This document shows positions 47,843-64,000 of a stretch of 64,000 nucleotides of DNA, piece after piece. Numbering within the stretch: position 1 is the first letter of the stretch; each line of letters begins with the position of its first letter. The DNA comes from Candidatus Microgenomates bacterium (GTDB lineage: Bacteria > Patescibacteriota > Microgenomatia > Daviesbacterales > UBA10151). Location: the NCBI GenBank assembly GCA_016182045.1, contig JACOYE010000008.1:64502-128501 (forward strand). Reading direction: 5' to 3'. The notes below the pieces were generated by a model. That model was not told the origin of the DNA. It did not search any database and saw only the letters and a list, made by a program, of their open reading frames with translations. The translations under genes and the position numbers were made by a program.

Positions 47843-49135
47843 ATGCCCCTGAAGCCAGAACCAAAACATGATCATGGAATTTTAAAATTCCCTCAAGGTT
47901 TCCTATGGGGAGCAGCCACCTCTGCCCACCAGGTGGAGGGTAATAATGTCCATAATGACTGGTGGGCATGGGAGCAGGGCAAGCCCTTTGACTTACGCTC
48001 AGGGCAAGCCTGCGATCAGTATCATCTCTATGAACAGGATTTTGATCTGGCCAAATCCTTAAATCACAATGCTCACCGCTTATCCATTGAATGGTCAAGG
48101 ATAGAACCTCATGAAGGTCAGTTCAATGAGAAGGAAATTGAACACTACAAAAAGGTCTTAAAAGCCTTAAAGCAGCGCGGTTTCACGGTGATGCTGACCC
48201 TTTGGCACTTTACCCTACCAAAGTGGGTGGCAGATGAGGGAGGCTGGGAAAACGGCCAAACTGTTAAGTATTTTGAGAGATTTGTGCGCAAAATTGTACC
48301 GGAGATTGCAGACTATGTTGACTTATGGGTGACCATCAATGAACCGGGTGTTTATATTTATGAAACTTATATAGCCAGGCAGTGGCCTAATGCCAAAAGG
48401 AGTCTTTGGGGACAAATCAAATCCTTTCTTAATTTGGCTTCGGCCCACAAAAAGGTGTACAATTTTTTGCATCAAAGTTTCCCGGCGGGCAAACCAGTCG
48501 GTATGGCCAACAATATCCTATCTTTTGAACCTTATCACAAACACTCCATCATAGAACAACTGGCTGTTTCCTTAAATGATATCTTTATCAATCATTTATT
48601 CTATTTCTTAACAGGCAAGACTCATGATTTTTTGGGAATAAATTACTACTTTCACGTCCGTTTTAAACACAGAATGCTACTGCCTCAAGCCGTAAACACC
48701 ACGGCTCAAACTCATGACATTTCCGATTTAGGCTGGGAGGTTTTTCCGGAAGGTATTTTTGATGTTTTAACCGATCTGTCTGATGATCTGCCCATTTATA
48801 TTACAGAGTGTGGCATAGCTTCCACCAATGATGATAGAAGAAATAGGTTTTTAATCACCTATTTGCAGGAAGTGGCCAGAGCCATCAAAGTGGGGGTAAA
48901 TGTGAGAGGCTTTTTCTATTGGTCTTTGATTGATAATTTTGAATGGCAGATGGGATTTGAACCCAGATTCGGCCTTGTTGAAGTAGATTATCAAACACAG
49001 CAAAGAATCATCCGTCCTTCTGCCAAAGTTTATGCTGAGATTATTGCCAGAGGGGGCATCCCTCATAATTTGATGCGGTTTATCGGACACACAGTTACAG
49101 CTAAAGAAGTTCTGGCCAGAAAATCCCATCCATGA
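47843..49135 (+). CDS. GH1-family beta-glucosidase
   Basis: 430 aa; FLWGAATSAHQVEG N-terminal signature, TINEPGV acid/base, YITECG nucleophile region. Confidence 0.85.
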   Translation: MPLKPEPKHDHGILKFPQGFLWGAATSAHQVEGNNVHNDWWAWEQGKPFDLRSGQACDQYHLYEQDFDLAKSLNHNAHRLSIEWSRIEPHEGQFNEKEIEHYKKVLKALKQRGFTVMLTLWHFTLPKWVADEGGWENGQTVKYFERFVRKIVPEIADYVDLWVTINEPGVYIYETYIARQWPNAKRSLWGQIKSFLNLASAHKKVYNFLHQSFPAGKPVGMANNILSFEPYHKHSIIEQLAVSLNDIFINHLFYFLTGKTHDFLGINYYFHVRFKHRMLLPQAVNTTAQTHDISDLGWEVFPEGIFDVLTDLSDDLPIYITECGIASTNDDRRNRFLITYLQEVARAIKVGVNVRGFFYWSLIDNFEWQMGFEPRFGLVEVDYQTQQRIIRPSAKVYAEIIARGGIPHNLMRFIGHTVTAKEVLARKSHP

Positions 49136-50973
49136 ATCATATCCCTTTTACCATTCTTGCATACTTTTTAAACAGTGTCTCAGTCACCATTAACAAACTG
49201 ATCTTGGTTAAATCCCTGATCGATCCCCTAATTTATATCTTCTACATCAGTTTAGTCTCTCTTTTGGCCATACTGATCCTGCCTTTTACCAAAATACCCT
49301 CTCCTTTAGTGTTTATCTTATCATCCCAGTCAACTTTGCTTTGGACTGGGGGAGCATATTTTATGTTCAAGGCCTTAAGGTCGGGTCAAGTCCAAAGAGT
49401 CATCCCGGCAATTGGTACCCTCACCCCTTTAATTTTACTGATGATGACCTCCTTCACGGAAAAACTGTCCCTTAATCAAATTTGGGCAGTGGGATTTTTA
49501 ATTGCCGGACTTATCTTTTTAACCATGGGCGACTGGAAGGGCAAACTCACTCTTTGGGAAATTGCTTTTGAGGTAATCTCCTCATTCCTTTTTGCCATCT
49601 CATATATCCTTCTTCGCCAAGCTTATCTTCTGGAGAATTTCCTGACAGTTTTGGTGTGGTCCAGACTGATCTTGGTGCCTCTGGGGTTGGTCATCTTGTT
49701 AACTCCCCTCTTAAGAAGAAAAATTTTTCAGTCGGGCTCTCATCCTCTGTCTCTGGCCGGCAAGATGGGGCTTATTTTTATTGTTGGACAAATCTTCGGT
49801 GGCGCCTCAGAACTACTTTTAACTTTCTCTATCTCTCTTGCTAATCCTGCCTTGGTCAACTCCCTTCAGGGCACCCAGTACATCTTTCTACTTATCTTTG
49901 TTTTGGTTTTATCCAAAAAATTTCCCGATGTATTTAAAAAAGAACGTGCCCTTTTCTTTTTGGCCAAGCTGGTCGGTATCGTTTTAATAGTATCCGGTCT
50001 TTATATCTTGGCTTTTTCTCCTACCAGCGGCACCGCAAAGGTTGACCAATTACCCAAATGGGGCTTAAGCTTTTCTCCCAGATATGCTAAGTCTCTGGGA
50101 CTTGATCCTGAGATCGTCTATCTTAATGTGCTTAATGAGCTGAAGGTGAAAAGATTAAGGCTGCCTGTTTATTGGGATGAAGTGGAAATTTACCCGGATC
50201 AGTTTAACTTCTCCGCTTTAGACTTTTACCTTAATGAGGCTTTAAAGAAAAAGGTGGAGATAATCTTGGTGGTGGGATATAAACAGCCCAGATGGCCGGA
50301 ATGCTACCCACCTTCCTGGGTCAATAGTTTAACCGGTTCGGAAAAGAAGATGAGAGTTCTGAAACTTTTAAAGGGGGAAATTTTATATTTCAAACAATTT
50401 ACCAATATCACTACCTGGCAGGTGGAGAATGAGCCTCTTTTTAACTGGGGCATTTGTGACCCTGAGCTTAGGGATGGGCAATTCCTCAAACAGGAAATTG
50501 ATTTGGTTAAAGCTCTCGACCAAAGACCCATTTTAATAACAGATGCCGGGGAGTTATCTTTGTGGATCGATCCCATCAAATTGTCCGATCTTTTCGGCAC
50601 CACACTTTACAGGCAGGTTTGGTCCCCCTACTTTGGGCAGCTAACTTATCCCTTACCGCCGATCTTTTATACCTTAAAGGATAATTTGGTTCGCATCTTC
50701 TCCGCAAATAAAGACAGCACGACCATCATCTCCGAACTTCAGGCAGAACCCTGGTTGGCCCGGGGTGTCACCATCACCGAGGTCAGTGCAGCAAAGCTTA
50801 ATAAACAGCTGCCTATCAACAAACTTAAAGGCAATTTTGAATATGCCAAAGAGACCAATTTTCCTCAAATTTATTTGTGGGGAGCGGAATGGTGGTATTA
50901 TATGGAGAAACAAGGCTATCCCCAGTACCTGGAATATGCCAAGACAATTTTTAGTAATGATTCACAAAATTAG
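49132..50973 (+). CDS. fusion protein: DMT/EamA-like 10-TM domain + C-terminal TIM-barrel glycoside hydrolase (GH5-like)
   Basis: 613 aa; C-domain …VYWDEVE…, …WQVENEP… (GH5-type NEP acid/base), …ITDAGE…. Confidence 0.55.
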   Translation: MNHIPFTILAYFLNSVSVTINKLILVKSLIDPLIYIFYISLVSLLAILILPFTKIPSPLVFILSSQSTLLWTGGAYFMFKALRSGQVQRVIPAIGTLTPLILLMMTSFTEKLSLNQIWAVGFLIAGLIFLTMGDWKGKLTLWEIAFEVISSFLFAISYILLRQAYLLENFLTVLVWSRLILVPLGLVILLTPLLRRKIFQSGSHPLSLAGKMGLIFIVGQIFGGASELLLTFSISLANPALVNSLQGTQYIFLLIFVLVLSKKFPDVFKKERALFFLAKLVGIVLIVSGLYILAFSPTSGTAKVDQLPKWGLSFSPRYAKSLGLDPEIVYLNVLNELKVKRLRLPVYWDEVEIYPDQFNFSALDFYLNEALKKKVEIILVVGYKQPRWPECYPPSWVNSLTGSEKKMRVLKLLKGEILYFKQFTNITTWQVENEPLFNWGICDPELRDGQFLKQEIDLVKALDQRPILITDAGELSLWIDPIKLSDLFGTTLYRQVWSPYFGQLTYPLPPIFYTLKDNLVRIFSANKDSTTIISELQAEPWLARGVTITEVSAAKLNKQLPINKLKGNFEYAKETNFPQIYLWGAEWWYYMEKQGYPQYLEYAKTIFSNDSQN

Positions 50974-54933: not shown

Positions 54934-55335
54934 TTAATTTAACACCACCCAGCCTCTTAAATCCTTTTTGGGGATTTTTACAGGTGAGGTAATAAAGCGG
55001 GAAGATTCTCCGATAAAGATTAAGGTACCGTAGCGGGAGTCCGCCTTTTTCTTCCAGTAGGTTTCATCTACAGCCAGTCTCTTTCCATATTTTCCCCTGA
55101 TTTCCCTAATATCCCCTAAATCCAGCCCATCATAAAAGATCACTTTTTTTACTCTAAATTGGCCAATTATATCTCCTCCTGAAGGTTTTATATAAACCAG
55201 ATCTCTGGCAGAAATTTGTCCGAAAGGAGGATCACGTCTTTTAGAAAATCTACTTTCTATAGTCTTTTTACCGGAAAGTATTAAACTCCCCCCTTCCCCC
55301 TTAAAAATAGCCAGATGTTTCCCCATTTGGGGCAA
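54934..55335 (-). CDS. ASCH (PUA-like) domain protein
   Basis: 133 aa; …HLAIFKGEGGSLILSGKKTIESRFSK… matches the ASCH N-terminal pattern. Confidence 0.45.
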   Translation of the reverse strand: MPQMGKHLAIFKGEGGSLILSGKKTIESRFSKRRDPPFGQISARDLVYIKPSGGDIIGQFRVKKVIFYDGLDLGDIREIRGKYGKRLAVDETYWKKKADSRYGTLIFIGESSRFITSPVKIPKKDLRGWVVLN

Positions 55336-58335: not shown

Positions 58336-58357
58336 CTTTTGTTATACTTGACAAAGT

Positions 58358-58386: not shown

Positions 58387-58581
58387 ATGCCCAACATTAT
58401 TTCATTTTTTAAAGAAGTTAGGGAAGAGTTAAATAAGGTGGCCTGGCCCACCAGGGAACAAACTGTCCGCTATACCATTTTGGTGGTTTTAGTAGCAGTT
58501 GTGGTGGGATTATTCTTAGGAGGCCTGGATTATATCCTAACTGCTCTCACCTCTTTTATATTAGGAAAATATGGACGATAA
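58387..58581 (+). CDS. secE: preprotein translocase subunit SecE
   Basis: 64 aa; amphipathic N-term (KEVREELNKVAWPTREQ) + single TM; immediately upstream of nusG. Confidence 0.75.
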   Translation: MPNIISFFKEVREELNKVAWPTREQTVRYTILVVLVAVVVGLFLGGLDYILTALTSFILGKYGR

Positions 58582-59275
58582 GAATCAGAACAACTCAGAA
58601 AACTCAGATAAATCAGAAGATCAGATTGTCACTGAGTCAGAAAGCCAGAACGAGCAAGTATCTGACACTCTGGTTTCCTCTGATACCTCTGATTCTTCTG
58701 GCACACCGAGTCCTTCTGAGTCTTCCGAAAAACCAACCAAACCTGACAATCCCAATGCCAAATGGTATGTAGTCCATACCTATTCCGGGCATGAAAATAA
58801 AGTGGCAGCCACCTTAAAGCAAAGAATTGAATCGGAACATTTGGAAAATAAAATTTTTGAAGTATTAGTACCCATGCAGGATAAAATTGAGATCAAATCC
58901 GGTAAAAAGATGACTGTCAAGGAAAAAATCTTTCCCGGTTATATTCTGGTAAAAATGCTCCTGGATGATCAATCCTGGCTGGCGGTCAGAACTACCCAGG
59001 GAGTGACTGCCTTTGTGGGCATGGGTAATAAACCCACTCCTATTTCCGATCAGGAAGTGCAAACCATAGTTAAGTTTACTCAAGAGGAAGCCCCAACTTT
59101 CAAACAAGTGTTTGCTACCGATGATACTGTTAAAATAATAGACGGTCCGTTTGCCGAGTTTATCGGAAAAGTGGATTCTGTAGATCAGGAAAAAGGAAAG
59201 GTCAGGGTTCTGGTCTCCATATTTGGTCGCGAGACACCAGTGGAATTAGATTTTTTGCAAGTGCAGAAAATATAA
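58571..59275 (+). CDS. nusG: transcription termination/antitermination factor NusG (with ~60-aa acidic Ser/Asp-rich N-terminal extension)
   Basis: NGN domain (KWYVVHTYSGHENKV) and KOW domain (…GKVDSVDQEKGKVRVLVSIFGR…). Confidence 0.9.
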   Translation: MDDKNQNNSENSDKSEDQIVTESESQNEQVSDTLVSSDTSDSSGTPSPSESSEKPTKPDNPNAKWYVVHTYSGHENKVAATLKQRIESEHLENKIFEVLVPMQDKIEIKSGKKMTVKEKIFPGYILVKMLLDDQSWLAVRTTQGVTAFVGMGNKPTPISDQEVQTIVKFTQEEAPTFKQVFATDDTVKIIDGPFAEFIGKVDSVDQEKGKVRVLVSIFGRETPVELDFLQVQKI

Positions 59276-59277
59276 CC

Positions 59278-59343
59278 GTTATAATCGCTCTGCGATTACA
59301 TCGCGACGCTTCTTGTAACGCGTTGCGTTATAACAATTATAAT
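59278..59343 (+). ncRNA. structured AT-rich element, copy B (same architecture as 26258-26322), directly upstream of rplK
   Basis: conserved blocks as in copy A; stem sequences CGCGACGC/GCGTTGCG (one G-U, favouring + strand RNA) replace CGTTCAC/GTGAACG of copy A. Confidence 0.45.
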
Positions 59344-59356
59344 AATTATACTAAAA

Positions 59357-59785
59357 ATGGCAGGAAAAAAAGTAAAAACTTACATTAAATTAAACATCCC
59401 GGCAGGCTCAGCTACTGCTGCTCCTCCTGTGGGACCTGCCCTGGGTCAGCATGGTTTACCTATCATGGAGTTTGTCAAGGCCTTTAATGAGAGAACAGCC
59501 GACAAACAGGGTAATATTTTGCCGGTGGTGATCACGGTTTATGAAGATAGGACCTTTTCATTTATCACCAAAGAACCACCTGTTGCGGAAATGGTTAAAA
59601 AAACTTTAGGATTGGAAAAAGGCTCAGGCAGGGCCCTAAAAGAACCTGTGGGTGAACTTACAAAAGAGCAGGTAAAAGCTATAGCTGAAGCTAAAATGCC
59701 GGATTTGAATACCAAAGATATTGAAGCTGCCACAAAAATTGTGGAAGGTACAGCCAAAAGTATGGGGGTAAAGGTGACTCCGTAG
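59357..59785 (+). CDS. rplK: 50S ribosomal protein L11
   Basis: 142 aa; [11 protein letters not shown] signature. Confidence 0.95.
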
Positions 59786-59822: not shown

Positions 59823-60692
59823 ATGGGTAAAACTAAAATTAAGGTTATTGATGCATCTCAGCCTGAGGTTGAGAAAAAGAAAGCCTCTAAAAAGGCAGAA
59901 AAACAGACGATAGAAGATAGAAAATCGAAGGTAGTGGTAGAAGATAGAGAATCGAAGATAGAAGAAAAAGAAAAAGTCCATCCTCAGCCTTCTACTATCA
60001 AAAAACCATCTTCTACCATCCATCATCCATCGTCAAAAAAAGTTAGATCCAAGAAATACCAGCAAGTTATAAAAGACCTGGACAGGACTAAATCCTATAC
60101 CCTCCCCGAGGCAGTTGACATGGTCAAAAAATTAAGCTACGCTAAATTTAATGCCACCTTAGAGGCTCATATAAACACCGCGCAAACGGGTCTACGTGGT
60201 CTGGTCTCCCTGCCCTATGCATCCGGGAAGAAATTACGCATCTTAGCCTTCGGTAAAGGCGCTGAACAATCGGGCGCAGATTTAGTTGGGACTGATGAGA
60301 TAATTGAAAGAATTAGTCAGGGAAAGGTGGATTTTGACTTAATTATAACCACTCCTGAGTGGATGCCCAAGTTGGCCAAAGTGGCCAAAATTTTAGGACC
60401 CAAGGGCTTGATGCCCAATCCCAAAAACGGCACTATCACTCCGCCAGCTGGCGGATCAGCTGACGGATTAAAGAAGGCAATTGAAGGATTTCAGGCCGGA
60501 AAAACCGAGTACAAAACCGAGTCTAAAGCTCCTGTTGTCCACCTTGCCCTGGGAAAATTAAGCCAGCCCACTGATGAACTTTCTCAAAATATCCAGACTC
60601 TTCTTCAAACTATTGGCAAAACCAGAATTAAAAAAGTCTCCCTTGCCCCCACCATGGGCCCATCTGTTAAGCTTGATCTTACAACCATCTAA
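59823..60692 (+). CDS. rplA: 50S ribosomal protein L1 (with ~55-aa Lys/Glu-rich N-terminal extension containing a short tandem repeat)
   Basis: 289 aa; L1 core from …KKYQQVIKDLDRTKSYTLPEAV…; repeat GAAGATAGARAATCGAAG x2 at 59921-59975. Confidence 0.9.
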   Translation: MGKTKIKVIDASQPEVEKKKASKKAEKQTIEDRKSKVVVEDRESKIEEKEKVHPQPSTIKKPSSTIHHPSSKKVRSKKYQQVIKDLDRTKSYTLPEAVDMVKKLSYAKFNATLEAHINTAQTGLRGLVSLPYASGKKLRILAFGKGAEQSGADLVGTDEIIERISQGKVDFDLIITTPEWMPKLAKVAKILGPKGLMPNPKNGTITPPAGGSADGLKKAIEGFQAGKTEYKTESKAPVVHLALGKLSQPTDELSQNIQTLLQTIGKTRIKKVSLAPTMGPSVKLDLTTI

Positions 60693-60756
60693 GATTTCCC
60701 TTCTCAATTTCGGGTCATTGACAAACTAGCTTATAATCTGATAGTCTTTCCGCAAC

Positions 60757-61206
60757 ATGCCATTTGTAGAATTAGCATTAGCCTTAGCACCAGAATATGG
60801 TGCTGCCTACATGAACGAAAGAAAGTCTTCAAGTGCTGAAACTGCCAAAAGCCATCATCGATTTGTAAGCAAAGTTAGAGAACATACGGGAGAGTTGCTT
60901 ATAGCAGCAGGCTTTGTAGCTGCTGCCGCTTTTGGCTTGGGTTCAATTAAAAATGCTGAAGCAGGGGGTAAAATTAACCCAAACGCTACTGAATACGATG
61001 AAACGTGTGCTGTATTTGAGCAAATATATCCTGGAAATGTTGTGGTAAATAATGGTGGTTTTTATGACCAATTATTCGTTTTCTACGAGGATGGTAAGAA
61101 TCAAGGTCGTCTTTGGGCATCTCCAGATTTTAACACAAGACGCTTTCAGAATTTAATAATTTTGCTGGGTGTTACTGAAGAAGATTGTGGTGGAGTTCAA
61201 CTGTAA
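60757..61206 (+). CDS. hypothetical protein
   Basis: 149 aa; sits between rplA and the subtilase where rplJ would be expected. Confidence 0.4.
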   Translation: MPFVELALALAPEYGAAYMNERKSSSAETAKSHHRFVSKVREHTGELLIAAGFVAAAAFGLGSIKNAEAGGKINPNATEYDETCAVFEQIYPGNVVVNNGGFYDQLFVFYEDGKNQGRLWASPDFNTRRFQNLIILLGVTEEDCGGVQL

Positions 61207-61320
61207 CGCGTATGATTTCCTAATTTGATGCAGCTTTCAGAACGCTTCTAAAAAGTACTCTCAATATCCATAAGCTTTTGGCCTCTACACATTTGACAAA
61301 TTCGGTCAGTATTATGAATA

Positions 61321-63225
61321 ATGGATATAGGCATTTTTATGAAATCGGGTTTTTCTTCAGTAATACTTATCTTTCTTTCATCCTTAGGGATTTTGGCCTA
61401 TATCCTACTTTCTTCTTCAGCCTCTTTTAAAGAGGAACTTTTTGGCACCCTTTATCCCAAGCCTTCCTCCAAAGCAATAGGAAAAGCCGAATCTGTTGCA
61501 GATGAGGTGATTGTCAAGTTTAAAGAAGGCACGGATGAGGGCAAAAAAGACAATATCAGAAGAAAACATAATCTTTCCAAAGTGGGAATCATCCCCAAAA
61601 TTGAGGTGGAAAGACTAAAAGTTGCCCCTCCGCTGAAAGAGGCCACAATTGAGCAGCTCAAAAATGATCCCAATGTTCTATTTGCTGAGCCAAATTATCT
61701 TGTTTATCCGGCAGTACTCAAAGGACCAGCCAAGATAGAACCTAATGATCCAAATCTGGCAACTCAGTGGGGAATGTTTAAAATCAGGGCAGCAGATACT
61801 GATACAGAAAATCCCGGCGCCTGGTCTGTGACTAAAGGAAGCAGATCAGTAAAAATTGCCATTTTGGATACAGGCATTGATGAGCGCCATGAGGATTTAA
61901 AAAGGCATGTTGTCTCAAGTGTCAATTTTGCAGATAGTCCCACCACAGATGATATCTGCGGTCACGGTACTGCTGTGGCCGGAGTGGCAGGGGCCTTAAC
62001 TGACAATAGAAGAGGTATCGCCTCTGTGGGATATGACACTTCTTTAATGAATGTGAAGGTACTGGGAGATGGTGATGGAGAAGGTCGCTGTTTGGCTGAC
62101 ACCGCCAGAGTTGCCAATGGTATTGTCTCAGCAGTTGATAATGGCGCCAAGGTGATTAATATGAGCTTGTCTCATCCAGTGGAATCTGCTCTTGAGGAAG
62201 TTGCCATTGATTATGCCTTCAGTCAGGGAGCTGTGTTGATTGCTGCGGCAGGAAATGAGAATACAAGCGATCCAACCTATCCTGCTTTCTACGATAATGT
62301 CATTTCTGTGGCTGCCACAGATTCAAATGACCAAAAAGCAGGATTCTCAAATTATGGCACATCGGTCGATGTGGCAGCCCCGGGCAGCAATATTTACTCA
62401 ACCAAAAAAGGTAACAGTTATGATTACTTCTCCGGCACATCAATTGCCGCACCTTCTGTTTCAGGACTGGCTGCCTTAATTTGGGCCAAGGGAGATTGTG
62501 TCACAAATACCTGTGTCATAAATCAAATTCAGTCAACCTCAGACCCAATAGCAGGCACAGGCAGTTTATGGGTTTGGGGTAGGGTTAACGCATATAGGGC
62601 TGTCACCCAAACCCCTCCTATTATCAAACCTTCCCCTCCACCAATTCAGCCAGCTGACACTGCTTCAGATACCTTTACCAGAGCCAATAATCCCGAATCT
62701 TTGGGTACTACCGAGGTTGGAGGAAAAACATGGACTACGCTTTCCGGCAGATGGGGTATTGATAACAATCAAGCCTACACCTCTGATTCCTGCCAAGACA
62801 TTATCCCCGGTTATTCTGTAGTGGACTGGGGTAAATCAGACGGGATTCTCCAGGTCAAATTGACCACTAACCCCCAAGGCACCAGAATTCCCTTTAGGCT
62901 TTCGGATACTGACAATTTGTATTATGTTTTAACAGAACCCAGATTCCCCGGTGATGTACCAGCTTACGGTCTTTGGAAAAAGGTTAAACCCCAAGGTCAA
63001 CCTTTTGCCCTGGAAACTTTTTTGACCAGATCATCGGGGATCACACCAGCTGATGGCGACATCATCAAATTACAACTTAACGGTTCAAGCATTAAGGTTT
63101 ATGCTAATGGCAATTTAATAATAGATGTTTCTGACAACGCTCTTTCCGGCACTAAATACGGTCTTGGTTACTTTGCCTGTGGCAGTCCGGTCTCTCATTT
63201 TGATGATTTCCTAATCACTCCATAA
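61321..63225 (+). CDS. subtilisin-like serine protease (S8) with N-terminal anchor, I9-like propeptide and C-terminal beta-rich domain
   Basis: 634 aa; catalytic triad motifs DTGID, HGTAVAG, GTSIAAPSVSG. Confidence 0.85.
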   Translation: MDIGIFMKSGFSSVILIFLSSLGILAYILLSSSASFKEELFGTLYPKPSSKAIGKAESVADEVIVKFKEGTDEGKKDNIRRKHNLSKVGIIPKIEVERLKVAPPLKEATIEQLKNDPNVLFAEPNYLVYPAVLKGPAKIEPNDPNLATQWGMFKIRAADTDTENPGAWSVTKGSRSVKIAILDTGIDERHEDLKRHVVSSVNFADSPTTDDICGHGTAVAGVAGALTDNRRGIASVGYDTSLMNVKVLGDGDGEGRCLADTARVANGIVSAVDNGAKVINMSLSHPVESALEEVAIDYAFSQGAVLIAAAGNENTSDPTYPAFYDNVISVAATDSNDQKAGFSNYGTSVDVAAPGSNIYSTKKGNSYDYFSGTSIAAPSVSGLAALIWAKGDCVTNTCVINQIQSTSDPIAGTGSLWVWGRVNAYRAVTQTPPIIKPSPPPIQPADTASDTFTRANNPESLGTTEVGGKTWTTLSGRWGIDNNQAYTSDSCQDIIPGYSVVDWGKSDGILQVKLTTNPQGTRIPFRLSDTDNLYYVLTEPRFPGDVPAYGLWKKVKPQGQPFALETFLTRSSGITPADGDIIKLQLNGSSIKVYANGNLIIDVSDNALSGTKYGLGYFACGSPVSHFDDFLITP

Positions 63226-63275
63226 TAAATAATCGGCCAGTTGACAAGGTTAAATATTTGTGTGAACAATAAATT

Positions 63276-63731
63276 ATGAGCAAAAAACAAGGGGGTTTTT
63301 CTACAATAGGTTGGATGCTTATTGCAATAGCTGGTCTTTTGGCCTTTGTTTTACTTTCCTCAACAGCTCCCCTCAACAACTTACTGTTTAGTAAACTTTA
63401 CCCTAAACCTGCCTCTGAGGCAGCTCCTCCACAAAAAAGTTTTTCTGCCACTCTTACTTTAGATCCCAATCCTGCGGAATGTTGTGGTACCTTTGTTTCT
63501 TCAACTGGTTCTGGATATTACCCCTCAGCTGATGCCTACATAAATATCCTCACTCCTAAATCAACCTATGTTTATACCAGATTTACCAGTTCTTCTGGCA
63601 CCCTTTCTTTTACATTTAATACTGCAGAGCCTGGTACCTACTCTGTTAAGGTTTATCAGAAAAAACCAAAAGGCGGTAAGCTTGTCCAGATGTCTGAAAC
63701 TCCTTTGGATGTAGTTCAGCTATCACCATAA
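63276..63731 (+). CDS. hypothetical secreted protein sharing the subtilase N-terminal motif
   Basis: 151 aa; N-terminus …QGGFSTIGWMLIAIAGLLAFVLLSSTAPLNNLLFSKLYPKPASEA… parallels subtilase …KSGFSSVILIFLSSLGILAYILLSSSASFKEELFGTLYPKPSSKA…. Confidence 0.45.
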   Translation: MSKKQGGFSTIGWMLIAIAGLLAFVLLSSTAPLNNLLFSKLYPKPASEAAPPQKSFSATLTLDPNPAECCGTFVSSTGSGYYPSADAYINILTPKSTYVYTRFTSSSGTLSFTFNTAEPGTYSVKVYQKKPKGGKLVQMSETPLDVVQLSP

Positions 63732-63745
63732 TAATATGCCAAAGG

Positions 63746-63876
63746 TTTTTGATAACCAAACGAGACTTGGTGATGATTCTACAGTACTTGCCACTTTAGG
63801 CAAAACCAGAATCAAGAAGATCAGACTTACCCCTACCATAGGCCCCTCAGTTAAGGTGGATCTGGGAAGTATTTGA
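63746..63876 (+). pseudogene. duplicated 3'-end fragment of rplA (encodes …LGKTRIKKIRLTPTIGPSVKVDLGSI*)
   Basis: close match to the genuine rplA C-terminus …IGKTRIKKVSLAPTMGPSVKLDLTTI* (60600-60692), including a 14-nt identical run GGCAAAACCAGAAT. Confidence 0.6.
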
Positions 63877-63940
63877 ATTTCGTAAAACAATGAGTAGTTT
63901 TTTAGAAAAATGGATATTGGGTAGAAACATAAGTTGGGCT

Positions 63941-63966
63941 CTTGACAGAATATCTTATAAAATGTT
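63941..63966 (+). promoter_or_regulatory. TTGACA…TATAAAAT promoter-like motif heading the region where rplJ would resume
   Basis: read directly; similar cTTGACAa motifs precede many genes in this window. Confidence 0.3.
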
Positions 63967-64000
63967 ACAAGAAGATCATGTCCGTAATAGAAATTGATTT

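Follow-up and report, generated by a model that had tools for sequence, protein, structure and literature searches.

A displaced rplA end beside three inserted genes at a variable junction in Candidatus Daviesbacteria

Several described systems bear on a duplicated 3′ end of rplA, the gene for ribosomal protein L1, that brackets three inserted genes in a stretch of 64,000 nt from Candidatus Microgenomates bacterium (GCA_016182045.1, contig JACOYE010000008.1, positions 64,502 to 128,501 of the forward strand; hereafter, the window). The genome belongs to Candidatus Daviesbacteria, within the Microgenomates of the Candidate Phyla Radiation (CPR). Recombination hot spots are variable islets between conserved core genes, and the junction studied here resembles them in that many unrelated small cargos occupy the same place in different genomes. 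Two-sided homologous exchange at a hot spot leaves no duplicated gene end, whereas the scar in the window needs a one-sided or site-specific event.

Integrative elements that enter gene 3′ ends, such as tRNA and tmRNA islands and the streptococcal integrative and conjugative elements and integrative mobilizable elements in rplL, rpsI, rpmG, guaA and lysS (PMC4701971), likewise sit at the end of a conserved gene, leave that gene intact, are flanked by a direct repeat of the gene end and have empty sites in relatives. Unlike them, the locus in the window has no integrase or mobility genes, its repeats are 68% identical instead of sharing an exact core of 12–54 bp, its boundaries differ between events, and its cargo consists of three ordinary host-style genes in 3 kb. 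Moreover, rplA is not among the target genes listed in PMC4701971. The orphan 3′ ends of rhs and contact-dependent growth inhibition (CDI) loci and the effector–immunity arrays of the Vibrio cholerae type VI secretion system (T6SS; PMC5361080) share with our locus a conserved upstream anchor, an incoming gene end that brings downstream genes with it, an old end left distally as an orphan fragment, the lack of an integrase, and join positions that vary between events. They differ in that the gene here is a housekeeping ribosomal gene with no variable toxin tip, so that the new tail brings no new function and the scar is a by-product; in addition, the host belongs to an uncultured CPR group, and the one-sided crossover is inferred here rather than observed.

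CPR bacteria are uncultured, have tiny genomes and few recognisable mobile elements, and their gain of accessory genes is poorly documented. The event at rplA is of a known kind, in which a hot spot next to a conserved operon gains genes and the old gene end is displaced. That it recurs at the rplA tail within a CPR family adds a new instance but no new principle. The scars are physical footprints of gene gain beside a universally conserved operon, and four independent ones occur at one gene end within a single family. Such footprints suggest that these CPR bacteria acquire secreted-protein genes by recombination anchored in conserved genes, and not from integrase-bearing elements, and a displaced rplA tail offers a practical marker of recently acquired DNA in metagenome-assembled genomes (MAGs).

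Two rplA ends around an insert

The locus comprises the following features (ORF, open reading frame).

59823–60692, + strand: intact rplA (ribosomal protein L1, 289 aa; Pfam Ribosomal_L1, E 3e-32), with a tail reading ...IGKTRIKKVSLAPTMGPSVKLDLTTI before the stop
60594–60692, + strand: resident rplA tail, the last 32 codons and the stop, aligned codon for codon with the remnant and proposed to have arrived with the cargo
60693–63736, + strand: inserted cargo block of about 3.0 kb, with three separately promoted genes
60757–61206, + strand: hyp149, a 149-aa hypothetical protein with one hydrophobic segment; TTGACA at 60718
61321–63225, + strand: S8 subtilase, 634 aa, with leader, prodomain, catalytic domain and C-terminal domain; TTGACA at 61293
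63252–63736, + strand: sec151 cassette, a promoter and an ORF (63276–63731) for a 151-aa secreted or anchored protein with a weak PPC-like domain
63737–63777: a 41-nt stretch between cargo and remnant, aligned by neither the L1 protein profile nor the nucleotide tail profile, where an illegitimate join would be expected
63778–63876, + strand: displaced rplA tail remnant, 32 codons and a stop (63874–63876), in frame and without indels
63799–63812, + strand: a 14-nt run, GGCAAAACCAGAAT, inside the conserved GKTRI codons, identical to 60615–60628
63942–64000, + strand: TTGACA box (63942–63947) and ATG at 63978, the probable start of a next gene (MSVIEID...), cut by the window end

The 3′ end of rplA is present on both sides of about 3 kb of cargo. 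The original prediction, made from the sequence letters, had rplA ending at 60692 and followed by ORFs of 149, 634 and 151 aa, the middle one a subtilase, and each of these points held (Pfam S8, E 1.3e-44). It had also placed a second, diverged rplA end at 63784–63876; that copy is real, but it begins earlier, being reliably homologous from about 63778 (32 codons). Two profiles served for the search, one of 81 related L1 protein sequences and one, at the nucleotide level, of the final 150 nt of rplA. The protein profile aligned 63778–63873 to its nodes 259–290, which are its last 32 positions (E 1.9e-13, hmmsearch), and the nucleotide profile matched 63785–63874 as its sole extra match in the window (E 1e-16, nhmmer), a value that rules out chance similarity, as had been argued before. 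A repeat search independently returned a direct repeat of 71 nt with 77% identity (60609–60679 versus 63793–63863). The remnant reads ...STVLATLGKTRIKKIRLTPTIGPSVKVDLGSI and keeps its stop at the same place as the resident tail, and the two tails are identical at 65 of 96 nt (68%), which leaves 31 differences. A remnant of 46 codons, the full length of the short ORF that contains it (63736–63876, ending ...LGKTRIKKIRLTPTIGPSVKVDLGSI), was rejected, as 63736–63777 has no detectable likeness to L1 in either profile.

We compared the differences between the tails with random placement of the same differences and with random mutation to the same divergence, in 20,000 trials, and judged residue typicality against 82 L1 relatives. 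Third codon positions hold 17 of the 31 differences (P 0.002), and the amino-acid changes number only 11 (P 5e-5). Just 3 of the 32 remnant residues were never seen in the relatives, against a random mean of 12, and 0 of the 20,000 trials equalled this value. Over the last 90 nt the remnant is 70% identical to the resident tail and up to 72% identical to the tails of other species; in a nearest-neighbour comparison of tails and gene body, made for the window and also for the related locus L023, all relatives were about equally distant. Because of the third-position bias, the few amino-acid changes, the family-typical residues, the lack of indels and the absence of any extra closeness to the resident tail, the two tails look like the ends of distinct rplA alleles, each shaped by selection, and not like a gene end and its drifted local copy. 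This allele-like character supports the view that one end is a replacement and the other the displaced original.

The same comparisons bear on whether the tail was duplicated locally, with the distal copy drifting and the cargo genes inserted one at a time between the copies. Such a history would suit the self-contained promoter-plus-ORF form of each cargo gene, the presence of sec151 as a single cassette elsewhere in a relative and, as weak evidence, the recurrence of the motif GATTTCC(TAAT) at three 3′ boundaries. However, the tail differences are third-position-biased, conservative and family-typical, whereas random drift gives a mean of 18 amino-acid changes, 12 family-atypical residues and a stop codon in 48% of trials, and the remnant lies no nearer to the resident tail than to those of other species. 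We therefore consider local duplication very improbable.

The 14-nt identical run had been proposed as the core of an att site. The run exists (60615–60628 and 63799–63812), but its significance as a core did not stand: a run of at least 14 nt arises in 8% of random placements of the 31 differences (P 0.08), and no exact att-type repeat exceeds what homology gives, the longest run in the 96-nt alignment at 68% identity being these 14 nt.

The nearest relatives of the intact rplA are from Candidatus Daviesbacteria, with 74–78% amino-acid identity over the best tblastn segment, and no relative above 78% was found in the genome and metagenome collections scanned. The gene has an N-terminal extension of about 75 aa (59823–60050), rich in Lys and Glu and with internal repeats of EDRKSKVVVEDRESKIEEKEK, and the Pfam L1 match begins at residue 102. 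Relatives also carry this extension, with variable length and sequence.

The rplA junction in related genomes

Searches with rplA in genome and metagenome collections yielded 106 related loci, those with informative titles being mostly Candidatus Daviesbacteria. Neighbourhood counts refer to the 54 unique loci in which a gene of the Pfam family LPG_synthase_TM is the next conserved gene after rplA. The conserved order in the lineage is rplA, this convergent membrane-protein gene, a gene for a dockerin-domain protein, variable DNA, and then rplJ and rplL. In 30 of the 54 loci the LPG_synthase_TM gene abuts rplA or overlaps it by at most 17 nt, and these are empty sites. The expectation that relatives would show an uninterrupted site was thus borne out, though with the LPG_synthase_TM gene at the junction and not rplJ; for the same reason the idea that rplJ normally follows rplA fell, while the TTGACA promoter foreseen after the remnant is there, with the ATG at 63978 lying 36 nt 3′ of the box at 63942, a host-type spacing that agrees with the one seen across the window. 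No homologue of the LPG_synthase_TM gene, the dockerin-protein gene, rplJ or rplL was found anywhere in the 64-kb window, and the flank at 63877–64000, including the ORF from 63978, showed no similarity to the related loci.

Where rplA and the LPG_synthase_TM gene overlap tail to tail, any insertion between the two must duplicate or damage a gene end. As estimated from alignment ends, the overlap measures 17 nt in 18 of the 54 loci (examples are L007 10808–10828 and L003 10670–10678).

Inserts of 0.4–5.5 kb, mutually unrelated, occupy the junction in 21 of the 54 loci. They contain toxin–antitoxin pairs, very large secreted proteins, an AAA ATPase, a low-molecular-weight phosphatase, an IS200-like transposase and a 23S-IVS-family protein, and most of them carry no scar. 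Variable genes accumulate at the junction after secE-nusG-rplK-rplA in Daviesbacteria, which makes it a hot spot. No homologue of hyp149, the S8 subtilase or sec151 was found downstream of rplA in the 106 related loci, and the idea that hyp149 or the subtilase might recur beside rplA was not borne out; the sole match was a distant S8 protein about 9 kb upstream of rplA in L100.

The tail profile detected extra rplA tails in four other assemblies, which represent three further independent events and bring the total to four. Counted from the stop, the remnant starts at −137 codons in L023 and L081, at −32 in the window, at −22 and −20 in L041 and L066, and at −17 in L020. Independent insertions therefore do not share a crossover point; the −22/−20 and −17 starts nonetheless lie close together.

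L023 (identical with L081) has a full rplA, a gene of 760 aa, a HAD hydrolase gene of 170 aa, the C-terminal 80 codons of the membrane-protein gene on the minus strand, an rplA fragment and then atpC. The fragment runs from codon 151 to the stop in an intact reading frame, and comparison of the two rplA copies shows 112 differences over 384 nt, 71 of them at third positions. An rplA facing atpC is also the arrangement in the L023 relatives L015 and L016, so the L023 fragment is in its native context and the cargo came with a piece of the donor's chromosomal neighbour. This fragment of an LPG_synthase_TM gene at the cargo end points to chromosomal donor DNA and not to a dedicated element.

In L020 a gene of 352 aa lies inside the rplA tail; in L005 and L080 this gene comes after an rplA that is intact. 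The displaced last 17 codons overlap a convergent 188-aa gene exactly as the intact rplA does in L006, so that siblings show a partial rplA copy in native context twice, beside atpC in L023 and beside the 188-aa gene in L020. The rplA of L020 (585–1801) is itself truncated, ending ...LLQTLGKKYRYIIP, with 17 nt of the tail lost; its L1 would miss the conserved C-terminal 24 residues. The truncation could be a real disruption or a strain-mixing artefact.

L041 and L066 share the order rplA, differing proximal genes, a Phd/YefM and PIN pair, a remnant of 20–22 codons and the membrane gene. The toxin–antitoxin pair and remnant are 83–85% identical at the nucleotide level (L041 12688–13470 versus L066 7752–8612), whereas rplA is only 72% identical, a contrast that suggests, from the sequences compared, replacement of rplA alleles. 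The PIN gene of L041 is internally deleted (110 versus 139 aa).

The resident tail in the window contains a perfect 10-bp palindrome, ATGGGCCCAT, at 60654–60663, which encodes the conserved TMGP motif of the L1 tail. The palindrome is exact in both tail copies of L041 and of L066, and conservation at the nucleotide level across the family is absent. As a universal recombination site we tried the tail motif CCCACCATGGGCCCATC and rejected it, as it is missing in many relatives even with 3 mismatches allowed.

The original prediction explained the insert by an integrase-borne element with att sites. In its full form this would be a circular element whose attP mimics the rplA tail, with a tyrosine or serine integrase crossing over in GGCAAAACCAGAAT and the integrase later lost or acting in trans. 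The topology of an intact gene, cargo and a displaced end is that of elements targeting gene 3′ ends, and streptococcal integrative and conjugative elements target rplL, rpsI and rpmG with direct repeats of 12–54 bp (PMC4701971). The rplA tail has also been struck repeatedly, with three of the four scars in the last 32 codons, two independent remnants begin within a few codons of each other beside a polypyrimidine tract and the ATGGGCCCAT palindrome, and the 14-nt run is present. Against these stand several observations. The cargo has no integrase, as had already been noted, and no excisionase or transfer gene either, and a Pfam scan of its three ORFs gave only the S8 domain with its prodomain and a weak PPC match. 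No integrase or site-specific recombinase was found in this cargo, in 10 upstream genes of the window or in 20 proteins from 10 other inserts, where the one mobility gene is the IS200-like Y1 transposase of L026. Furthermore, the 14-nt run is non-significant, boundaries range from −137 to −17 codons, the L023 cargo holds a fragment of a chromosomal neighbour gene, L020 received no replacement tail and has a truncated rplA, no IMG/VR viral contig has an rplA tail or an rplA relative (two scans, of viral contigs only), and hyp149 has no homologue. Taking both sides together, we consider a site-specific element unlikely. From the earlier explanation we keep the replacement end and the displaced end, supported by the allele-like tails and the empty sites, and find no support for the integrase and att element, as no recombinase was found and boundaries vary.

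Routes by which the insert may have arisen

The insertion is best explained, with a probability that we put at about even, by one-sided homologous recombination anchored in nusG-rplK-rplA and an illegitimate join at the far end. The proposed anchor lies directly upstream of rplA.

58387–58581, + strand: secE (Pfam SecE)
58571–59275, + strand: nusG (Pfam NusG and KOW)
59357–59785, + strand: rplK (Pfam Ribosomal_L11)
58387–59785, + strand: the conserved secE-nusG-rplK block upstream of rplA, proposed homologous anchor, 70–88% amino-acid identity in related loci

The anchor is present, with nusG, rplK and rplA lying directly left of the cargo and being 70–88% identical in amino acids across Daviesbacteria loci. 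DNA of a related bacterium, already carrying rplA followed by hyp149, the S8 subtilase and sec151, would have recombined with the recipient chromosome through homology in this conserved block. The donor's non-homologous far end would then have been joined illegitimately inside the recipient rplA, about 32 codons before its stop, in an event of homology-facilitated illegitimate recombination that probably followed DNA uptake. Between crossover and join, the recipient rplA would have been replaced by the donor allele with its intact end and the donor's three downstream genes, and the recipient's last 32 codons would have remained as a non-functional remnant beside the original downstream flank. 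The direction of the exchange, with the resident tail being the donor's, the one-sided crossover and DNA uptake as the route of entry are inferred. Homology-facilitated illegitimate recombination with displaced gene ends has been proposed for T6SS effector and rhs loci (PMC5361080, which cites de Vries & Wackernagel 2002, Prudhomme 2002 and Meier & Wackernagel 2003), and natural competence has been shown in CPR Saccharibacteria (PMC10633639).

We prefer recombination to a site-specific event because no recombinase was found, no core is significant, the boundaries are scattered and L023 holds a chromosomal fragment; because L020 has no substitute tail; and because the cargo promoters are host-style and sec151 has a paralogue and occurs as a cassette elsewhere. 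Several points weigh against this preference. Neither a donor nor a close relative of this genome was found (best rplA 78% amino-acid identity), so that for the window the crossover, a mosaic in the anchor and any microhomology at the join are presumed. Three of the four remnants are shorter than 100 nt and the L020 and L041/L066 starts fall within about 5 codons; random joins along the 870-nt gene would be less clustered, which hints at some preferred site. The donor must, in addition, already have had the cargo beside rplA, so that the origin of this arrangement is pushed one step back. Finally, the right junction rests on one assembly and crosses a stretch of about 300 nt (63432–63731) that, judged from protein identity, is nearly identical in a paralogue.

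The clustering would be accounted for if the rplA tail in Daviesbacteria, and perhaps elsewhere in the CPR, were a preferred target of an unrecognised kind of cassette insertion that works with no integrase gene in cis. A chromosomal recombinase or a repair pathway acting on the polypyrimidine tract and the ATGGGCCCAT palindrome, for example, might insert genes one at a time, each with its own promoter, sec151 and the 352-aa gene of L005, L020 and L080 being examples. If true, this would explain why three of the four scars cluster in the last 32 codons and why the rplA of L020 is truncated; we hold it to be a long shot.

The paralogue stretch at the right junction raises the question of an assembly artefact, in which the contig would switch between sec151 paralogues in their near-identical 3′ two-thirds and the remnant and its flank would belong after the other paralogue. 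That paralogue (P0123, HYT18_03980) lies in the same MAG; its overall identity is 81%, and from about residue 50 to the end the two proteins are almost the same. An independent Logan contig, L107, matches exactly from 59791 and ends at 63453, where the paralogous repeat begins, and no independent contig across 63453–63900 was found. The left junction, in turn, is identical in three independent Logan assemblies (L107–L109). Each paralogue was nevertheless assembled between flanks of its own on a long contig (160 kb and 56 kb), the layout of rplA, cargo and remnant recurs in four other assemblies from other samples, and an rplA-tail fragment immediately following a sec151 cassette would call for the same kind of explanation even in a misjoined contig. 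An artefact accordingly seems improbable to us, and one-sided recombination with an illegitimate join stays our preferred account.

The inserted genes

In itself, the biology of the cargo, a secreted subtilase and its companions, is ordinary. The subtilase matches PF00082 (Peptidase_S8, E 1.3e-44) above the curated cut-off and PF22148, a fervidolysin-type prodomain (E 4.5e-12), and the Asp, His and Ser motifs of the active site are readable as ILDTGID, CGHGTAVAG and SGTSIAAP. It has more than 3000 homologues, the best foreign one being 53% identical over 65% of the protein, and its C-terminal domain of about 200 aa is uncovered by any of the 120 homologues listed. The product of hyp149 gave no Pfam match and its only database match was itself (HYT18_02250), which makes it an orphan. 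No reverse-strand ORF longer than 73 aa was found in the cargo.

The sec151 cassette, from its promoter to 5 nt past the stop, is 75% identical at the nucleotide level to L110 1175–1658, over exactly that span. In L110 the cassette sits between homologues of the window genes at 49132–50973 and 54934–55335, so that it occupies different places in related genomes. We rejected integron cassettes as a model, as there is no inverted-repeat structure at the cassette ends and no integrase, and the cassettes here are self-promoted. Typical integron cassettes lack promoters of their own.

The subtilase (61339–61480) and sec151 (63276–63440) share an N-terminal leader of about 50 aa with 41% amino-acid identity, consisting of G-F-S, a hydrophobic stretch and LLSS.A...LF..LYPKP.S.A. 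The S8 homologue P0002 carries this leader as well, as do the sec151 homologues P0123 and P0124; the leader may be a lineage-specific signal for secretion, anchoring or processing. Judging from sequence features, the cargo most likely encodes secreted or surface proteins, an S8 protease that looks active and a small protein with the same leader, which would give the cell extracellular proteolysis.

Each cargo ORF has, as predicted, a TTGACA box of its own, 28–39 nt upstream of the ATG. Window-wide, TTGACA (at 58348, 57291, 46092, 28649 and 19282, for example) stands 19–79 nt (mostly 26–46) upstream of twelve start codons, three of which are those of the cargo genes. The box is usually TTGACAA, and −10-like boxes often lie nearer to it than the canonical 17-nt spacing. 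This native promoter layout implies very short or absent 5′ leaders, as far as can be read from the spacing of the motifs.

An exact 13-mer, ATGATTTCCTAAT, occurs at 61212–61224, just past the hyp149 stop, and again at 63203–63215, at the end of the S8 ORF; GATTTCC is also present after the rplA stop (60693–60699). The recurrence of the 13-mer may be a trace of stepwise insertion beside rplA or may be due to chance, about 0.09 such pairs being expected in 3.5 kb.

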